Of a stretch of DNA of 28,906 nucleotides, positions 7,327 to 27,918 are shown one piece after another. The position numbers were made by a program, and so were the translations under genes. The stretch is from a virus. Lineage: Duplodnaviria > Heunggongvirae > Uroviricota > Caudoviricetes. Position 1 is the stretch's first letter, and the number at the start of each line of letters is the position of its first letter. The stretch covers positions 1-28,906 of IMG/VR virus record IMGVR_UViG_2548876943_000002; one strand, written 5' to 3'. The notes below the pieces were generated by a model that saw only the letters and a list, made by a program, of their open reading frames with translations, searched no databases and had not been told where the DNA came from.

Positions 7327-9453
7327 ATGGCAGAGACATTAGAGAAAAAACATGAGCGGATCATGCTCAGGTTTGACCGCGCCTATTCTCCACAGCAGGA
7401 AGTGCGCGAAAAGTGCATTGAAGCTACGAGGTTTGCTCGTGTCCCCGGAGGTCAATGGGAAGGAGCAACGGCGGCTGGAACTAAGCTTGATGAGCAGTTC
7501 GAGAAGTATCCTAAGTTTGAAATCAATAAGGTAGCAACTGAACTTAACCGCATCATTGCAGAATACCGCAATAACAGAATCACTGTTAAGTTTCGTCCTG
7601 GTGACAGAGAGGCAAGCGAAGAGTTAGCCAATAAATTAAATGGTCTGTTCCGTGCTGACTACGAAGAAACTGATGGCGGTGAGGCTTGCGATAATGCATT
7701 TGACGACGCTGCTACTGGTGGTTTCGGTTGCTTCCGTTTGACGTCGATGCTGGTCAATGAATACGACCCCATGGACGATCGTCAGCGTATTGCTATTGAA
7801 CCAATATACGACCCGTCGCGCTCTGTGTGGTTTGACCCTGACGCTAAGAAGTACGACAAATCTGACGCGTTGTGGGCGTTCTGCATGTATTCGTTGTCAC
7901 CTGAAAAATATGAGGCTGAATACGGAAAGAAACCTCCTGCTTCACTGGATGTAACGTCTATTACCAGTTGGGAATATGACTGGTTTGATGCAGATGTTAT
8001 TTACATAGCGAAGTATTACGAAGTTCGTAAAGAGTCTGTTGACGTCATCAGTTATCGACATCCAATCACTGGAGAGATTGCAACATACGACAGTGATCAG
8101 GTCGAAGATATTGAAGATGAATTGGCAATAGCTGGATTTCAGGAAGTTGCAAGGCGCTCAGTGAAGCGACGTCGTGTGTATGTATCAGTAGTGGATGGTG
8201 ATGGTTTCCTTGAGAAACCTAGACGTATCCCTGGTGAGCATATCCCCCTCATCCCGGTTTATGGAAAACGCTGGTTCATTGATGACATTGAGCGTGTCGA
8301 AGGGCACATTGCAAAAGCAATGGATCCACAGCGTTTGTACAACATTCAGGTTTCAATGCTGGCTGATACTGCAGCGCAAGACCCCGGTCAGATACCTATA
8401 GTTGGCATGGAGCAAATTCGTGGACTTGAGAAGCACTGGGAGGCTCGCAACAAGAAACGCCCAGCGTTCTTGCCGTTGCGCGAAGTGAGAGATAAATCTG
8501 GCAACATTATCGCTGGAGCTACCCCGGCAGGATATACACAGCCTGCGGTTATGAATCAGGCATTGGCTGCATTACTACAGCAAACCAGTGCAGATATTCA
8601 GGAGGTTACAGGCGGCAGTCAGGCCATGCAGCAGATGCCAAGTAATATTGCTCAGGAAACGGTTAACAACTTGATGAACAGAGCAGATATGGCTTCGTTT
8701 ATCTATCTGGACAATATGGCGAAAAGTCTTAAACGCGCTGGTGAAATATGGCTGTCAATGGCGCGTGAAGTGTACGGTTCAGAGCGTGAAGTGCGCATCG
8801 TTAACGAAGATGGAAGTGATGATATCGCTGTCCTGAGCGCACAGGTTGTTGACAGGCAAACAGGGGCTGTTGTTGCGTTAAATGACCTTTCTGTCGGTCG
8901 ATACGATGTGACGGTTGATGTTGGACCAAGCTACACATCACGACGTGATGCAACGGTTTCTGTACTGACAAATGTCCTTAGCTCTATGCTTCCAACAGAC
9001 CCAATGCGCCCGGCAATTCAGGGTATTATTCTGGACAATATCGATGGCGAAGGCCTTGATGACTTCAAAGAGTACAACCGAAACCAACTGTTGATATCTG
9101 GTATTGCAAAACCACGCAATGAGAAAGAGCAGCAGATTGTTCAACAGGCGCAAATGGCAGCACAAAGCCAGCCAAATCCTGAAATGGTTCTCGCTCAGGC
9201 GCAAATGGTAGCAGCGCAGGCAGAAGCGCAAAAAGCAACTAACGAAACTGCTCAAACTCAAATCAAAGCATTTACTGCCCAGCAGGATGCGATGGAGAGT
9301 CAGGCAAACACTGTCTATAAACTGGCTCAAGCAAGAAACATCGATGACAAAGCGGTGATGGAGGCAATACGCCTTCTGAAAGATGTCGCCGAGTCACAAC
9401 AACAGCAATTCCAGTCACCACCACAGTCACCGGCAGACTTAATGCCGAGTTAA
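7327..9453 (+). CDS. Portal protein (P22 gp1/Sf6 gp3-like)
   Basis: About 708 aa after terL. Q/A-rich C-terminal barrel segment typical of P22-like portals. ATG at 7327 chosen over the track's non-ATG start at 7318. Confidence 0.85.
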   Translation: MAETLEKKHERIMLRFDRAYSPQQEVREKCIEATRFARVPGGQWEGATAAGTKLDEQFEKYPKFEINKVATELNRIIAEYRNNRITVKFRPGDREASEELANKLNGLFRADYEETDGGEACDNAFDDAATGGFGCFRLTSMLVNEYDPMDDRQRIAIEPIYDPSRSVWFDPDAKKYDKSDALWAFCMYSLSPEKYEAEYGKKPPASLDVTSITSWEYDWFDADVIYIAKYYEVRKESVDVISYRHPITGEIATYDSDQVEDIEDELAIAGFQEVARRSVKRRRVYVSVVDGDGFLEKPRRIPGEHIPLIPVYGKRWFIDDIERVEGHIAKAMDPQRLYNIQVSMLADTAAQDPGQIPIVGMEQIRGLEKHWEARNKKRPAFLPLREVRDKSGNIIAGATPAGYTQPAVMNQALAALLQQTSADIQEVTGGSQAMQQMPSNIAQETVNNLMNRADMASFIYLDNMAKSLKRAGEIWLSMAREVYGSEREVRIVNEDGSDDIAVLSAQVVDRQTGAVVALNDLSVGRYDVTVDVGPSYTSRRDATVSVLTNVLSSMLPTDPMRPAIQGIILDNIDGEGLDDFKEYNRNQLLISGIAKPRNEKEQQIVQQAQMAAQSQPNPEMVLAQAQMVAAQAEAQKATNETAQTQIKAFTAQQDAMESQANTVYKLAQARNIDDKAVMEAIRLLKDVAESQQQQFQSPPQSPADLMPS

Positions 9454-21131: not shown

Positions 21132-22034
21132 ATGAATAGTATAGCAATTTTAGAAGCAGTGAACACCTCTTACGTACCATTCAACGGTCAGCAAATTATC
21201 ACCGCCATGGCTGCCGGAGTTGCATACGTTGCGATGAAGCCAATCGTTGAAAACCTTGGAATGAGTTGGGGTACTCAGCAACAAAAACTTATGAAACAAC
21301 TAGATAAGTTCAACTGTATTCATATGAATATGGTTGCCGCTGATGGGAAGCTTCGTAAGCTACTCTGCCTTCCTTTGAAGAAGTTAAATGGATGGCTGTT
21401 CAGCATCAACCCTGAGAAAGTTCGAGCTGACATCCGCGATAAACTGATTCAGTACCAGGAAGAATGCTTTACTGTACTGCATGACTACTGGACAAAGGGA
21501 AAGGCAGAAAATGCACGTAAGAAAACATCTGTTGATGACAGGACTCCGCTTCGTGATGCTGTAAATATGCTAGTCAGCAAAAAGCATCTAATGTACCCAG
21601 AAGCTTACGCAATGATTCATCAGCGTTTCAATGTGGAAAGTATTGAAGAGCTTGATGCATCTCAGATACCGCAAGCCGTAGAGTACATCCACAGGGTAGT
21701 GCTTGAAGGTGAGTTCATCGGCAAACAAGAGAAGAAAACCAACGAGCTTTCTGCAAAAGAAGCAAGCAGCCTTGTATGGCTATGGGATTATGCCAACCGC
21801 TCACAGGCATTATTCCGCGAACTGTATCCGGCGCTGAAACAAATTCAATCGAACTATTCCGGCAGATGTCATGACTGCGGTTATGAGTTCTCCCGTATTA
21901 TCGATATAGCGAGAGACGTTTTAATCAATCACTCACGAGATGTTGATATCAATGAGCCAGACGGACCAACGAATCTTTCCGCATGGATGAGACTTAAGAA
22001 TAAAGAATTACCTCCTTCAGTACATAACTACTGA
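21132..22034 (+). CDS. ant: Antirepressor Ant
   Basis: 300 aa; N-terminus [49 protein letters not shown] matches P22 Ant as recalled. ATG 21132 chosen over the track start at 21102. Confidence 0.85.
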
Positions 22035-22134: not shown

Positions 22135-24165
22135 ATGACAGATTCAATAAATGCCAATGTTGTAGTAAGTATGCCATCGCAACTCTTCACTATGGCTCGT
22201 TCTTTTAAAGCCGTAGCCAATGGTAAAATTTATATTGGTAAAATTGACACTGACCCGGTAAATCCAGAAAACCAGATTCAGGTTTATGTGGAGAACGAAG
22301 ACGGTTCTCACGTTCCTGTTTCGCAACCAATCATCATTAACGCTGCTGGATATCCGGTATATAACGGACAGATTGCCAAGTTTGTAACTGTGCAAGGCCA
22401 TTCTATGGCTGTTTATGATGCGTACGGTGTGCAGCAGTTCTATTTTCCGAATGTGCTGAAGTATGATCCAGATCAGTTCTCCATAGATTTCCCTCAGCAA
22501 CTTTCTCAATTAGGGTTATATGTAAATGATGACAGCAAGGGAGATGCAATGATAGGTGTTAAGCAGCCTATCACTGGGTCAATTCATCGTACACAGCACG
22601 ATGTAAACTATGAAAGAATTAGCGCTTTTGACCTTGGAGTGAAGGGGGATGGAGTTACTGATGATGTAACTGCAATTAGAGAAGCACTAATCACTGCAGC
22701 AACAGCAAGACGTTCCATCCATTTCCCTGATGGCGTCTATTTATGCAGTGACTTTTTTTCAATACCAAGCCACTCAAGGATCTATTGTGACCCCGGTGCA
22801 GTTTTTAAACTTACAGGTAGTACTAGCCTTGGTGGATTCGCTGTAACAGGCCTCAATAATCAGGTGCAGACAGAGCTATGTGAAGATGTTGTTACGTATA
22901 ACATGACGCTTGATTGCAATAAAATATCAGGTGAAAACGGAATGAATGGCGTGACATGTAGGAACATACGTCACTACAACCTTACAGTCATTAATACTCT
23001 TCACAACGCAGAATCAAGAGGAGGAAGGGCCTTTCAATGCGAAGGGGGGATTTCATCTGATGTCCATGTTTTTAACTTTGTAATTAAAAATTGCTCTATA
23101 GGTGTAAATTATCAAGGGCTACCAGATGCATCTCAAAAGGTTGCAGCATTCAGCTTTCACGGTGTAGCAATGGAGAACGTAGATGTTCCGTTCTGTATTT
23201 ATTCACAAATATCTAACCCTGAGTCAAACACACCAGAAATTATGAGTGTAGCTGCGTTTGATGTAAGTTGCCATAACTGCGGAAAAATCACTGGTGGATA
23301 TGGTGATCAACTTGGTGCTGGAATAATATGTGGCGATAGAGGTTATGGGCTATTTATAGATGGTATTCGAGTGGTTAACGAATCATCGTATGGAGGGATT
23401 GGAGCTTTTATAAGGGGGCAAATGTTTGGCGTATCAATAAACAACGCTGACATTTATTGCATTTACGCTGTTTCAGTAATAGATCATAACAAGATAGGGT
23501 TTGATGACGCCGCTGTTAATACAGTTCCTTCAAGCGTTAGAGTTAGAAATTTAAATGTATCAAGTAATTTGGATTTTATAGTTCGAGCCCCTGACTCTTC
23601 GGCTATTGGTAACTCAACAGTTGACGTGTCTGTAAACATAACAAGAGCATCACTAAATCAATTATTTGATTCTGGCGCAGGAGGAAGCGCTTCCGCAGTT
23701 ATTAATATATCTGACTCTTTGACTGGTAAGTCATCAGGATTTAGAACGTTAAAAAATATTTTTGATGCTGGTAATTCTATTGGTTTACTATCTAGATATG
23801 ATGCTGGCGGAAGCTGGGTCCCAATAGACGGTAGTGGTGCAGGAATTGCAATATTATTAACAGGACAGCAAAAATATACAAAAGCAGGTGAGGTTGTTCA
23901 CTTTTATATGAACATCATATACCCAGTGAACGATAACACAAACGACGCTGTTATCTCTGGATTGCCTTTTAACTCTGTACCGTTTGTTTCTCAATTTGCA
24001 GGAGCGGCATCAATAGCGATTAAGTCATCATCAATGTTATCAACTGTAGGGATTCTTCCTGGTGGTGATAAGCTGAAATTCTATGGTACAACTGGTGCCC
24101 CACTAACTAACAGAGACATGTCAGGCGTTAGTGTTGCTGTTTTCGGATCATATATTTCAGAATAG
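22135..24165 (+). CDS. Tailspike protein: P22-like N-terminal head-binding domain fused to a divergent beta-helix (pectate-lyase-like) receptor-binding/depolymerase domain
   Basis: N-terminal about 115 aa (…[39 protein letters not shown]…[10 protein letters not shown]) matches the P22 gp9 head-binding domain as recalled. Downstream [21 protein letters not shown] resembles Pectate_lyase_3-type beta-helix motifs. Lower GC in the 3' two-thirds. Confidence 0.85.
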
Positions 24166-24204
24166 AAGAAAAATATATTTAAATTGGTGCAAAAACTTGG
24201 ACGC

Positions 24205-24236
24205 ACAAAGCTTTGTACTGGATTACAAAGCTTTGT
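24205..24236. repeat. Two perfect 12-bp palindromes ACAAAGCTTTGT with 20-bp centre-to-centre spacing, about 40 bp downstream of the tailspike stop
   Basis: Read directly from sequence at 24205-24216 and 24225-24236. Confidence 0.8.
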
Positions 24237-24896
24237 GTCATTCGATAGTTAAGGTGGTCACTCCACCTTTTCATCAATCCAGTCAGCCCACCATTGCATC
24301 ATTTCTCTGCACTTAATGTAGCGGATGCCTCACTATCACATAGTGATGGTTCATTACTGCTTTGTAGAATGGATAGAGAACTGAGGATAAAAAGATATCC
24401 CAAAACCCCAAAATCTCATCTTTAGGATTGCAGAAAGGGAGGCGTGAACAGATACCTGCGCATGAAGACGGAACCAGTCCAGATGTGATATTTGTGGTGA
24501 TCACATACATCATCAACGATGCTCGTTATGGTGAGTTTGATGACTACCCGCTGAAGTGAAAATAGTGTTGTGTACCAAATTGCGTACCAAACTAAAATCA
24601 CAAATCATGAAACCCTTGTTCATGGCGGTTCTCAGGGGTATTGCGCGTAATCGTGAAACAAAAAGGTAGATTGTTGCTTACCGTCATTCATCATTAGGTT
24701 AAATCCGTTATTTCTGCTGTCTGCCAGAGTATCAAATATCACCGTGCTAATCAGCTTTAGCGCAACAATTTGACAGCGAGTGGCAACAGATCATGTCAGA
24801 TAAAAATGAGAGAGTAGTCACATTTTCTTGCACTTTATTCCAGCCAGTTCATAAGTATTTCCGTAAAAAGAACAGCTATTTGAAACTCCTGAGGGT

Positions 24897-26069
24897 TTGC
24901 TGTTGAAACGCCGTCTTATTATTGCTGCTTCTTTGTTCGTTTTTAACTTATCGTCTGGTTTTGCGGCGGAAAACATTCCTTTTTCACCTCAGCCTCCACA
25001 GATTCATGCCGGGTCCTGGGTACTGATGGATTACACCACCGGTCAGATCCTCACCGCGGGTAATGAGCATCAACAGCGCAATCCCGCCAGCCTGACAAAG
25101 CTGATGACGGGTTATGTCGTGGATCGCGCTATCGATAGTCATCGCATTACGCCAGACGATATTGTCACCGTGGGGCGCGATGCGTGGGCGAAAGATAATC
25201 CGGTGTTTGTCGGTTCTTCACTGATGTTTTTGAAAGAGGGCGATCGCGTATCGGTACGTGATTTAAGCCGTGGTTTAATTGTGGATTCCGGAAATGACGC
25301 TTGTGTTGCTCTGGCTGACTATATTGCCGGTGGGCAACGGCAGTTTGTTGAAATGATGAACAACTATGCCGAGAAGCTGCATCTCAAGGATACGCATTTT
25401 GAAACAGTGCATGGTCTGGATGCACCTGGCCAGCATAGCTCGGCTTATGATTTAGCTGTGCTTTCTCGCGCTATCATCCACGGCGAGCCCGAGTTTTATC
25501 ATATGTACAGTGAGAAAAGTCTCACCTGGAACGGTATCACCCAGCAAAACCGTAACGGGTTGTTGTGGGATAAAACCATGAATGTTGACGGCCTGAAAAC
25601 GGGTCATACTTCTGGTGCCGGGTTTAATCTCATTGCTTCGGCTGTAGATGGGCAGCGTCGTCTCATTGCAGTGGTAATGGGGGCTGACAGTGCAAAAGGT
25701 CGTGAGGAAGAGGCAAGAAAATTACTGCGTTGGGGGCAACAAAACTTTACTACGGTGCAAATTTTGCACCGTGGGAAAAAGGTCGGAACGGAACGCATCT
25801 GGTATGGCGATAAAGAAAATATCGACCTGGGAACGGAACAAGAGTTCTGGATGGTGCTACCGAAAGCCGAAATTCCACATATCAAAGCCAAATATACCCT
25901 TGATGGTAAAGAGCTCACCGCGCCAATTAACGCCCATCAGCGGGTAGGGGAAATTGAACTTTACGACCGTGATAAACAGGTGGCGCACTGGCCGCTGGTT
26001 ACCCTGGAATCTGTCGGGGAAGGCGGCATGTTTTCCCGCCTGAGTGATTATTTCCACCATAAGGCCTGA
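24897..26069 (+). CDS. dacD: D-alanyl-D-alanine carboxypeptidase DacD (PBP6b); TTG start as in the ORF track
   Basis: Protein recognised as E. coli DacD from memory (signal peptide, SxxK motif in NPASLTKLMTGY, SGN motif in DSGNDA). Confidence 0.85.
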   Translation: MLLKRRLIIAASLFVFNLSSGFAAENIPFSPQPPQIHAGSWVLMDYTTGQILTAGNEHQQRNPASLTKLMTGYVVDRAIDSHRITPDDIVTVGRDAWAKDNPVFVGSSLMFLKEGDRVSVRDLSRGLIVDSGNDACVALADYIAGGQRQFVEMMNNYAEKLHLKDTHFETVHGLDAPGQHSSAYDLAVLSRAIIHGEPEFYHMYSEKSLTWNGITQQNRNGLLWDKTMNVDGLKTGHTSGAGFNLIASAVDGQRRLIAVVMGADSAKGREEEARKLLRWGQQNFTTVQILHRGKKVGTERIWYGDKENIDLGTEQEFWMVLPKAEIPHIKAKYTLDGKELTAPINAHQRVGEIELYDRDKQVAHWPLVTLESVGEGGMFSRLSDYFHHKA

Positions 26070-26187: not shown

Positions 26188-26661
26188 ATGAACTACGAGA
26201 TTAAGCAGGAAGAGAAACGTACCGTTGCAGGTTTCCATCTCGTTGGTCCGTGGGAACAGACGGTAAAGAAAGGCTTTGAGCAGTTGATGATGTGGGTAGA
26301 TAACAAAAATATTGTGCCGAAGGAGTGGGTTGCTGTCTATTACGACAATCCAGATGAAACACCCGCCGAAAAATTACGCTGCGACACCGTTGTGACGGTA
26401 CCGAATAACTTTACGCTCCCCGAAAACAGTGAGGGCGTTATTCTGACAGAAATTTCAGGTGGTCAGTATGCGGTTGCGGTGGCTCGTGTAGTCGGTGATG
26501 ATTTTGCTAAACCCTGGTATCAGTTCTTTAATAGCCTCTTGCAGGACAGTGCTTATGAAATGTTACCAAAGCCCTGCTTCGAGGTTTATTTGAACAATGG
26601 CGCGGAAGATGGGTACTGGGATATCGAAATGTATGTTGCGGTGCAGCCAAAACATCACTAA
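26188..26661 (+). CDS. sbmC: DNA gyrase inhibitor SbmC (GyrI)
   Basis: 157 aa; recognised as E. coli SbmC from memory ([26 protein letters not shown]...). Confidence 0.85.
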
Positions 26662-26859: not shown

Positions 26860-27918
26860 GTGCGTGCCGATAAGTCATTAAGCCCGTTTGAAATCCGGGT
26901 ATACCGCCATTACCGCATTGTGCATGGTACTCGGGTCGCGCTGGCATTCCTGCTCACTTTTCTCATTATCCGCCTGTTTACTATCCCGGAAAGCACCTGG
27001 CCGCTGGTCACCATGGTGGTGATTATGGGGCCAATCTCGTTCTGGGGTAACGTTGTCCCTCGCGCCTTTGAGCGTATTGGCGGTACGGTGTTGGGTTCGA
27101 TTTTAGGTCTTATCGCTCTGCAACTGGAGTTAATCTCGTTACCGCTGATGTTAGTCTGGTGCGCGGCGGCCATGTTCCTTTGCGGTTGGCTGGCGCTGGG
27201 CAAGAAACCGTATCAAGGTTTATTGATTGGGGTGACGCTGGCAATTGTTGTTGGTTCCCCGACAGGTGAAATTGATACGGCGTTATGGCGAAGCGGCGAT
27301 GTGATCCTCGGCTCTTTACTGGCAATGTTGTTTACCGGTATCTGGCCACAACGGGCGTTCATCCACTGGCGCATTCAACTGGCGAAAAGTCTGACCGAGT
27401 ATAATCGGGTCTATCAATCTGCATTCTCACCGAACTTACTCGAACGCCCACGTCTGGAAAGCCATCTACAAAAACTCCTGACCGATGCCGTGAAAATGCG
27501 TGGGCTGATTGCGCCCGCCAGCAAAGAAACCCGTATTCCAAAATCGATATATGAAGGTATCCAGACCATTAACCGCAATCTGGTTTGTATGCTGGAGTTG
27601 CAAATCAATGCGTACTGGGCCACGCGCCCCAGCCATTTCGTGTTATTGAACGCGCAAAAACTTCGTGATACCCAGCACATGATGCAGCAAATACTGCTGA
27701 GCCTTGTTCATGCGCTGTACGAAGGTAATCCGCAGCCGGTTTTTGCCAATACGGAAAAATTGAACGATGCTGTGGAAGAGCTGCGTCAGTTGCTCAATAA
27801 CCACCATGACCTGAAGGTAGTGGAAACACCAATCTATGGTTATGTGTGGCTGAACATGGAAACGGCGCATCAGCTTGAGTTGCTATCGAATCTGATTTGC
27901 CGGGCCTTGCGCAAATAA
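26860..27918 (+). CDS. yeeA: Inner-membrane protein YeeA (FUSC-family-like), GTG start
   Basis: 352 aa with multiple TM helices in the N-terminal half; recognised as E. coli YeeA from memory. Confidence 0.8.
   Translation: MRADKSLSPFEIRVYRHYRIVHGTRVALAFLLTFLIIRLFTIPESTWPLVTMVVIMGPISFWGNVVPRAFERIGGTVLGSILGLIALQLELISLPLMLVWCAAAMFLCGWLALGKKPYQGLLIGVTLAIVVGSPTGEIDTALWRSGDVILGSLLAMLFTGIWPQRAFIHWRIQLAKSLTEYNRVYQSAFSPNLLERPRLESHLQKLLTDAVKMRGLIAPASKETRIPKSIYEGIQTINRNLVCMLELQINAYWATRPSHFVLLNAQKLRDTQHMMQQILLSLVHALYEGNPQPVFANTEKLNDAVEELRQLLNNHHDLKVVETPIYGYVWLNMETAHQLELLSNLICRALRK

Follow-up and report, generated by a model that had tools for sequence, protein, structure and literature searches.

The right end of the prophage

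The stretch of DNA analysed here (28.9 kb in its whole length, hereafter the window) carries a prophage integrated at the sbcB-dacD locus, with host sequence starting at 24646 and dacD at 24897-26069. The tailspike gene is identical to one that RefSeq labels as encoding a phage head-binding domain protein. The element of interest begins 38 nt past its stop codon (24163-24165) and contains two identical, perfect 12-bp palindromes spaced 20 bp from centre to centre; both the pair itself and its location 3' of the tailspike gene are as a preliminary description of this DNA had reported. The features of this region are as follows.

22135-24165, plus strand: tailspike gene (676 aa), with which the rightward late operon ends; its 3' untranslated region contains the element
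24191-24203: left flank, AAAAACTTGGACG, a degenerate (GAG)ACAAAACTGAGACA; P22 counterpart GGGACAAAAATGGGACA (arm-type Int sites P1/P2)
24205-24216: palindrome 1, ACAAAGCTTTGT; with C24204 it is the 5' arm of a long inverted repeat; relatives read ...CTTTGC
24217-24224: spacer or 'loop', ACTGGATT; its final TT and the next bases are the middle TTGC/TTAC repeat
24225-24236: palindrome 2, ACAAAGCTTTGT; with G24237 it is the 3' arm; relatives read GCAAGGCTTTGT
24241-24249: conserved block TTCGATAGT, which accompanies the element in E. coli-type copies; P22 form TTTCGAAGAT
24251-24275 (stem 24251-24269), plus strand: second hairpin, AAGGTGG-TCACT-CCACCTT and then TTCATC, enclosing the stop codon of a dead integrase gene
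24258-24329, minus strand: fossil of an IntS/KplE1-type tyrosine integrase gene, last 23 codons and stop, ...GIRYIKCREMMQWWADWIDEKVE
24497-24559, plus strand: 3' end of an HK544_025-like gene, ...NDARYGEFDDYPLK and stop; also in HK544 and mEp234
24572-24579 and 24584-24591, plus strand: direct repeats GTACCAAA, 12 bp apart, candidate arm-type sites
24646-24658: att core, 13 bp, 'type 2851', sbcB locus

The palindrome ACAAAGCTTTGT has exactly two exact copies in the 28.9-kb window, the two described; allowing up to two mismatches there are four sites, compared with 2.0 expected from shuffled sequences, and the two extra sites are unrelated. So close a pair of identical palindromes is not due to chance. 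Two identical palindromes necessarily also constitute one long inverted repeat, here with 13-bp arms, CACAAAGCTTTGT (24204-24216) and ACAAAGCTTTGTG (24225-24237), on either side of the 8-nt spacer ACTGGATT. Relative to the consensus of related copies, the window carries C24216T and G24225A, which turn the loop-closing C-G pair into T-A and make both halves perfect palindromes; pairing within the long hairpin is retained, while the TTGC-N6-TTGC boxes of the relatives are destroyed. This perfect form was found in 2 of 122 IMG/VR loci. The 151-nt block of the window that surrounds it is covered to at least 80% somewhere in 915 of 5426 complete E. coli genomes, and 3 of the 2375 matching E. coli records reach at least 99% identity to it. 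Judged from these alignments, the perfection of the palindromes is a lineage-specific, rare variant of a conserved lambdoid element of about 45 bp.

Of note, E. coli strain Z1323HEC0422 (NZ_CP148339.1, 160092-174170) has a prophage right end that is 100% identical over 24185-24335; this prophage is a remnant in which int is truncated, an IS3 element abuts the gp4 gene, and the early and head genes are deleted. Near the left end of the window, genes for tRNA-Asn(GTT) (2392-2466) and tRNA-Thr(TGT) (2472-2547) lie just 3' of a Q-antiterminator-like gene, as in Stx-type lambdoid phages.

Copies of the element in other phages and prophages

Similarity to other phages begins at 24192, 13 nt left of palindrome 1, and from there to 24646 the sequence is common, at 91-96% identity, to mosaic phages with different tails and left neighbours (mEp234, Sf101, E212, phage 2851, Stx phages 1717 and others); the gene to the left of the element may be a tail fibre gene, oac, an esterase gene or gtrA. 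The consensus of 74 distinct copies is AAAACTGAGACA CACAAAGCTTTGC ACTGGATT GCAAGGCTTTGTG CTCTTCGATAGTGG, with TTCGATAGT further right. In almost all 74 the individual 12-bp palindromes are imperfect, and the spacer, with a conservation of 0.92-1.0, is at the same level as the arms. TTG at element positions 10-12, 20-22 and 30-32 is almost invariant, and the element also permits division into three units of 10 bp (CAAAGCTTTG, CACTGGATTG and CAAGGCTTTG) of the pattern CAnnnnTTTG; the P22 copy has four (CAAATCTTTG, CATCGGTTTG, CAAGGCTTTG and CATGTCTTTC).

The K-12 copy, in prophage KplE1/CPS-53, lies between intS and yfdG/gtrA, directly downstream of intS, which is also its position in HK620/Sf6-type phages. 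The lambda copy is at 27475-27508 (NC_001416; 676-709 of our stretch L260), approximately 35 nt beyond the tI/sib hairpin; counted from the att centre it spans -256 to -223, which is not within the mapped attP, and the lambda RefSeq record has no annotated feature at 27475-27508. In P22 (NC_002371, about 21187-21219) the copy is located inside the P arm of attP, 80-115 bp from the core, between the TGGGACA-type Int arm repeats TGGGACAAAAATGGGACA and ATGGGACG and with its TTTG motifs in 10-bp phase. Further copies are present in genomes representing species of Citrobacter, Scandinavium, Kosakonia and Erwinia as well as E. albertii; what adjoins them is either a P22-type arm with a different tRNA core, an IntS-like gene, sequence of the lambda sib/P1 type, or something else. 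As assessed by sequence comparison, the homology to the lambda, P22 and K-12 copies and the genomic context are secure. A pattern search of IMG/VR with TGGGACANNNNTGGGACA mostly returned P' arm sites in P22-type int genes and unrelated DNA, and only two loci, L247 and L209, were gained as extra P-arm variants.

The element has already been noticed in phage annotations, there in the form of putative sites. The GenBank record of epsilon34 (EU570103, 21499-21525) lists a 'possible rho-independent terminator for transcription from int' and two 'putative CII-binding sites', and that of phage L (MW013502, 19748-19796) annotates the copy as a terminator, an in-silico prediction. In the epsilon34 paper, TTGCN6TTGC sites are described ahead of gtrA, with a possible role in activating the gtr cassette (PMC2629481).

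Two side observations concern the related loci. In the Scandinavium, Erwinia and Citrobacter loci, the element has on its left a gene that encodes a C-terminus, ...GEFDDRPVM, similar to NDARYGEFDDYPLK of the HK544_025-like gene, and neighbouring genes are labelled UmuD/HumD-like S24 peptidases in some records. A 2.5-kb contig from a 'Bacillota' metagenome-assembled genome (JAEWTL010000008.1) is identical over the examined stretch to an E. coli lambda-type arm (L251), and its Bacillota label is probably the result of binning contamination.

Nucleotide diversity of the 34-nt element is 0.097, in contexts with an intact integrase gene and in fossil contexts alike, and is close to that of integrase third codon positions (0.105), so that strong purifying selection is not demonstrated. 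Diversity rises to 0.4 in the 8 nt left of the element, on account of the mosaic breakpoints located there. The relatives include single-copy deletion variants and also loci in which the element is replaced. Its retention beside at least five unrelated integration modules, together with its replacement by other hairpins, argues for some stem-loop function at the border.

Integrase remnant and attachment site

It had been stated that nothing in the annotated genes explains the palindromes. This does not hold: a dead IntS-type integrase gene has its 3' end in the flank of the element, with a stop codon complementary to 24258-24260. Among 123 related loci (119 IMG/VR stretches retrieved by sequence pattern, other retrieved loci and the window), 81 have the corresponding frame at full length (385 aa, MLTVKQIEAAKPKEKPYRLLDGNGLYLYVP...), and the full-length integrase was identified as IntS of the E. 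coli K-12 prophage KplE1/CPS-53; two short fossil peptides, too short for Pfam, gave no match there. The palindromes of the window hold the position that, in intact phages, follows the 3' end of intS. Published work places the att site used by IntS before the gene, overlapping the intS promoter (PMC2951348), so that the element is outside that site and is ruled out as the attP of IntS. JEP4 carries a longer IntS fossil, of approximately 385 nt, beside yet another integrase gene, and by comparison of the two sequences this is an independent replacement event. The window and JEP4 fossils thus suggest that integration modules are replaced by insertion into older modules.

The suggestion that the palindromes are protein-binding sites near att stands in part. 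The element does lie in the att/int neighbourhood, at the left edge of the block common to type-2851 (sbcB) right ends, and its P22 homologue is inside attP; what finds no support is a role as sites at which the prophage's own machinery integrates. A distance of 410 bp separates the element from the core. In HK544, which shares the core and an arm of about 150 bp, there is no copy of the element in 2.6 kb, and none is present within 1.2 kb leftward; for HK140 and APC_JM3.2 the common sequence is limited to roughly the last 170-190 bp, and 24497-24559 marks the start of the arm portion common to all type-2851 attP sites. Nor does the palindrome recur on both arms near the core: its only location in the window is 24205-24236, and Sf101 has no further copy. 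The octamer GTACCAAA, on the other hand, is present on both sides of the core in mEp234 (four found compared with 0.2 expected, two of them between core and int), and these repeats are probably the arm-type sites of the type-2851 integrase. Because HK544 lacks the element and the GTACCAAA repeats flank the core instead, the comparison places the element outside the attP that this phage itself uses. The int gene of type-2851 phages is found on the right of the core, with its transcription directed away from the core. A lambda sib-type retroregulator was also considered and rejected, given this position and direction of int and the fact that only the dead fragment is upstream of the element on the minus strand.

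Folding of the repeat and terminator tests

On either strand the long repeat folds as a hairpin of 14-15 bp with a 6-nt loop, at -22.6 kcal/mol on the plus strand and -20.8 kcal/mol on the minus strand (z about -6). The window copy thereby has the stable stem and the loop of 3-8 nt that characterize an intrinsic terminator; directly after the stem, however, there is no U-rich tract, the tails being TCATTCGA (plus) and CGTCCAAG (minus), and a terminator scan of 23800-25200 called none, with four T in the 8 nt after the stem. In E. coli-type and lambda copies, neither strand has more than a weak or displaced U-tract past the stem. The phage L copy is called as a plus-strand terminator by the scan. 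In the window the second hairpin (24251-24269), with TTTT, follows 13 nt after the long stem, and its GGTGG/CCACC stem and UUUU are terminator-like.

Among 76 distinct sequences, 92.3% of the cells of the long hairpin are paired. Changes on both sides that keep pairing occur in locus L067 (ACAAGTCTTTGC/GCAAAGACTTGT), in L019, in SfV (C-G to T-A) and in the window (C-G to T-A), and a diverged type, L005, also keeps pairing (GCAAGGCCTG/CAGGCCTTGC, then a T-run). It should be noted that the covariation score of the long hairpin was 0.078 compared with 0.070 in shuffled alignments, a value reached by 25 of 500 shuffles, and that the percentage of paired cells was no better than in shuffles. As an indication of the strand on which the element might function, G-U and A-C cells were counted, with 83 and 22, respectively, but the distinct kinds were similarly many on both sides. 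By fold energy, the better strand differs from one homologue to another. ES18 (AY736146, about 26217-26307) has a P22-type Int and arm sites and, instead of the element, an unrelated spacer with a hairpin; this spacer has the same 47-nt length and its T-tracts keep the 10-bp phase, which hints, at the level of sequence, that spacing and bending may matter in P22-type P arms.

The supplementary tables of E. coli K-12 Term-seq have no entry for intS, yfdG or gtrA. Rfam returned six matches to the element, the best with 21 bits against a gathering score of 45 and all with E of at least 0.89. No sigma-70 promoter was found at the element on either strand, and small ORFs across it (e.g. 24131-24316, plus strand) were rejected, the flanks not being conserved between contexts.

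What the element may be

The best explanation, to which we give about an even chance, is a terminator-like stem-loop at a module border, inherited here as a fossil; its function is what we infer from the folds and contexts described above. The palindromes are this prophage's copy of a conserved lambdoid border element, made of a 13-bp inverted repeat, an 8-nt spacer and three 10-bp-phased CAnnnnTTTG units, with the rightward late, tail and conversion genes on one side and the integration module on the other. The copy was inherited with the 23-codon IntS-type fossil, that integrase gene having been replaced by the sbcB 'type 2851' module. In the transcript, the stem-loop and the adjacent GGTGG/CCACC-UUUU hairpin would act as a weak intrinsic terminator or 3'-end stabilizer, such that transcription of the tailspike gene and the late operon would end there and be kept from the att/int region and, in the prophage, from the host flank (sbcB'-dacD). 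C24216T and G24225A amount to one compensatory exchange, C-G to U-A, at the loop-closing pair.

The stem-loop part of this explanation is favoured by folding on both strands, by the high proportion of paired cells with several variants that keep pairing, and by ES18, where the unrelated sequence that replaces the element again holds a hairpin. Termination as such is favoured by the scan call on the L copy, by the GenBank labels and by the second hairpin with its T-run. Against termination stand the failure of the window copy in the scan, the weak or displaced U-tracts of the E. coli-type and lambda copies, the weak covariation, the inconsistency of the better strand and the lack of intS 3'-end entries in the Term-seq tables. 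A plain terminator is further disfavoured because the loop is as conserved as the arms, which a terminator does not require. In lambda biology, Q-antiterminated late transcription would ignore an intrinsic terminator, and this too counts against termination. With an element diversity about that of third codon positions, strong constraint is not demonstrated, and the window copy may be a functionless fossil; it is probably a fossil whose role, if any, goes no further than termination.

A doubtful but tenable alternative is that the element is a relic with no function at all, namely what was once the outer portion of the P arm in an ancestral P22-type attP, in which case the perfect palindromes would reflect two neutral substitutions. 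P1/P2 and a phased, bendable or Xis-binding spacer would have been left behind as first IntS-type and then sbcB modules inserted to the right. The copies in P22, epsilon34, L, Citrobacter, Scandinavium and Erwinia do lie between TGGGACA-type repeats and within about 115 bp of a tRNA core, and the E. coli copies retain a decaying GAGACAAAACTGAGACA at the left; T-tracts in 10-bp phase are common to P22 and the unrelated 47-nt ES18 spacer, and there are two independent IntS fossils of unequal length (the window type and JEP4). The diversity of the element, about that of synonymous sites, and the existence of single-copy deletion variants and replacements are likewise in keeping with a relic. It is harder to reconcile with a relic that the element persists beside at least five unrelated integration modules, including that of lambda, where it is outside the mapped attP, that it is more uniform than the adjacent P1/P2-like relic, and that a lost element is usually replaced by another hairpin, which suggests that the position needs a stem-loop.

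It is unlikely, in our estimate, that the element is a binding site of the lysogeny activator CII (C1 in P22), placed at the border of conversion and integration genes so as to activate or block transcription. Lambda CII and P22 C1 recognize TTGC-N6-TTGC(/T), and the consensus element, TTGC-ACTGGA-TTGC-AAGGCT-TTGT, amounts to two overlapping plus-strand boxes, with three TTGC in P22-type copies; in Sf101 the motif marks pRE, paQ and the element, although with so short a motif about six occurrences per Sf101 genome are expected by chance. The phage of the window probably encodes a CII of this specificity, as the paQ-like motif in its Q-like gene would imply, but its own element reads TTGT-N6-TTAC-N6-TTGT with both boxes broken, and the only three exact motif matches in the window are elsewhere. 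Conservation of the boxes is also incomplete in relatives, since SfV and 2G7b keep one TTGC, the 75/02 Stx phage is without the middle one, and TTGT comes first in 13 of 74 E. coli copies. There is no acceptable -10 hexamer 13 nt past the boxes (the hexamers at pRE-like distance are CTTCGA or ATTCGA), and the gap to the next conserved block varies by indels. The epsilon34 record and paper, as mentioned, call the sites putatively CII-binding and suggest activation of the gtr cassette (PMC2629481); the boxes, however, point away from gtrA and are antisense to int.

Two motif occurrences in the window deserve mention in their own right. TTGCGTGGCTTTGC, at 2123-2136 on the minus strand, is antisense within the ORF at 1811-2329, which encodes the Q-antiterminator-like protein of 172 aa, and resembles the CII-dependent paQ promoter. 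A second exact TTGC-N6-TTGC, TTGCGTGGTTTTGC, at 9106-9119 (minus strand) in the structural gene region, is probably fortuitous, with approximately 2.7 expected per window.

More generally, it seems improbable that the ~45-bp element is a sequence-specific protein site across lambda, P22, KplE1, Stx and other lambdoid phages. The candidates would be a CII/C1 site, TTGC-N6-TTGC-N6-TTGY, or a host architectural site, and the window copy would be a mutated and inactive version. A CII/C1 site would couple the lysogeny decision to transcription across att, int or conversion genes, and a protein site of any kind would mean an uncharacterized regulatory site in the lambda b region beside sib. The element was also compared by eye with the consensus sequences of other regulators (LexA, CRP, OxyR, PurR/LacI-type, TyrR, NtrC, sigma-54, Fis and CytR), and all were rejected for misfits in spacing or critical bases. 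The OxyR/Dam phase-variation region of gtr was likewise discarded: the element has no GATC, and the minimal region in P22 ends 115 bp upstream of the start site, which excludes the element (PMC2909390).

The model proposed in the preliminary description, two operators bound cooperatively by a dimeric regulator, or by integrase, excisionase or IHF as part of attR, is largely refuted by the comparison with relatives and appears very improbable: although the copies are exact and 20 bp apart, the conserved spacer is compatible with protein recognition, and CAA-N4-TTG resembles part of the IHF consensus, the palindromes are mostly imperfect in 76 relatives, with helix 1 paired to 81% and the outer pair of palindrome 1 standard in 14 of the 76 distinct sequences. 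As separate palindromes they do worse than the long hairpin (87.9% of cells paired, covariation no better than in shuffles), and no further copies are present in the window, which excludes the left part of the prophage, or in the complete related phage Sf101. The element is moreover common to phages with unrelated integrases and excisionases, and it is missing next to the same att core in HK544, quite apart from its distance of 410 bp from the core here. As to IHF, the best matches of the element to the consensus WATCAANNNNTTR have two mismatches, whereas the real sites H1, H2 and H' of lambda and H' of P22 have none.

Implications

For the window itself the finding is of little import, as no new regulator or att component is indicated. 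Of modest wider use is the observation that a single short element marks the edge of integration modules of at least five unrelated kinds (P22-type at tRNA sites, IntS/KplE1, lambda, sbcB 'type 2851' and JEP4-type). It survives integrase swaps as a nested fossil and could serve as a landmark of prophage right ends and of module exchange. Its presence in lambda and K-12 makes its function cheaply testable, the candidates being a terminator, a CII site and bent DNA.

Comparison with known systems

With intrinsic terminators the element shares a stable stem, a loop of 6-8 nt and a 3' untranslated position after the last late gene; unlike them, it has an AT-rich stem (5 G-C of 13 pairs), a conserved loop and, in the window, no adjacent U-tract. 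In the P arm of P22 attP the copy has TGGGACA repeats on either side, is some 80-115 bp away from the core and shows TTTG in 10-bp phase. In the window, by contrast, the integrase is of another type with GTACCAAA as arm repeats, and the element, 410 bp from the core, is dispensable for type-2851 att, as HK544 illustrates.

The copies of epsilon34 and L are homologous to that of the window (CACAAAGCTTTGCATCGGTTTGCAAGGCTTTGCATG versus CACAAAGCTTTGTACTGGATTACAAAGCTTTGTG), with the same inverted repeat at the same outer edge of the integration module. They differ in being situated in a P22-type P arm beside gtrA, with a stem that is followed by a T5 run and with unbroken TTGC boxes, whereas the window copy has neither of these and lies beside an integrase fossil, after the tailspike gene. 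The lambda copy, CACAAAGCTTTGC ACTGGATT GCGAGGCTTTGTG, is near-identical to the E. coli consensus and is located downstream of int, on the far side of attP; the characterized tI/sib hairpin of lambda (27546-27575) is a separate stem-loop. In the window no int gene is upstream of the element on the minus strand, and sib-like retroregulation is therefore inapplicable. The KplE1 prophage of K-12 differs in that its intS is intact, with att upstream of it (PMC2951348), compared with the 23 codons left in the window; its intS-yfdG region nevertheless matches the window both in the element and in what follows it, the integrase 3' end and the stop-codon hairpin.
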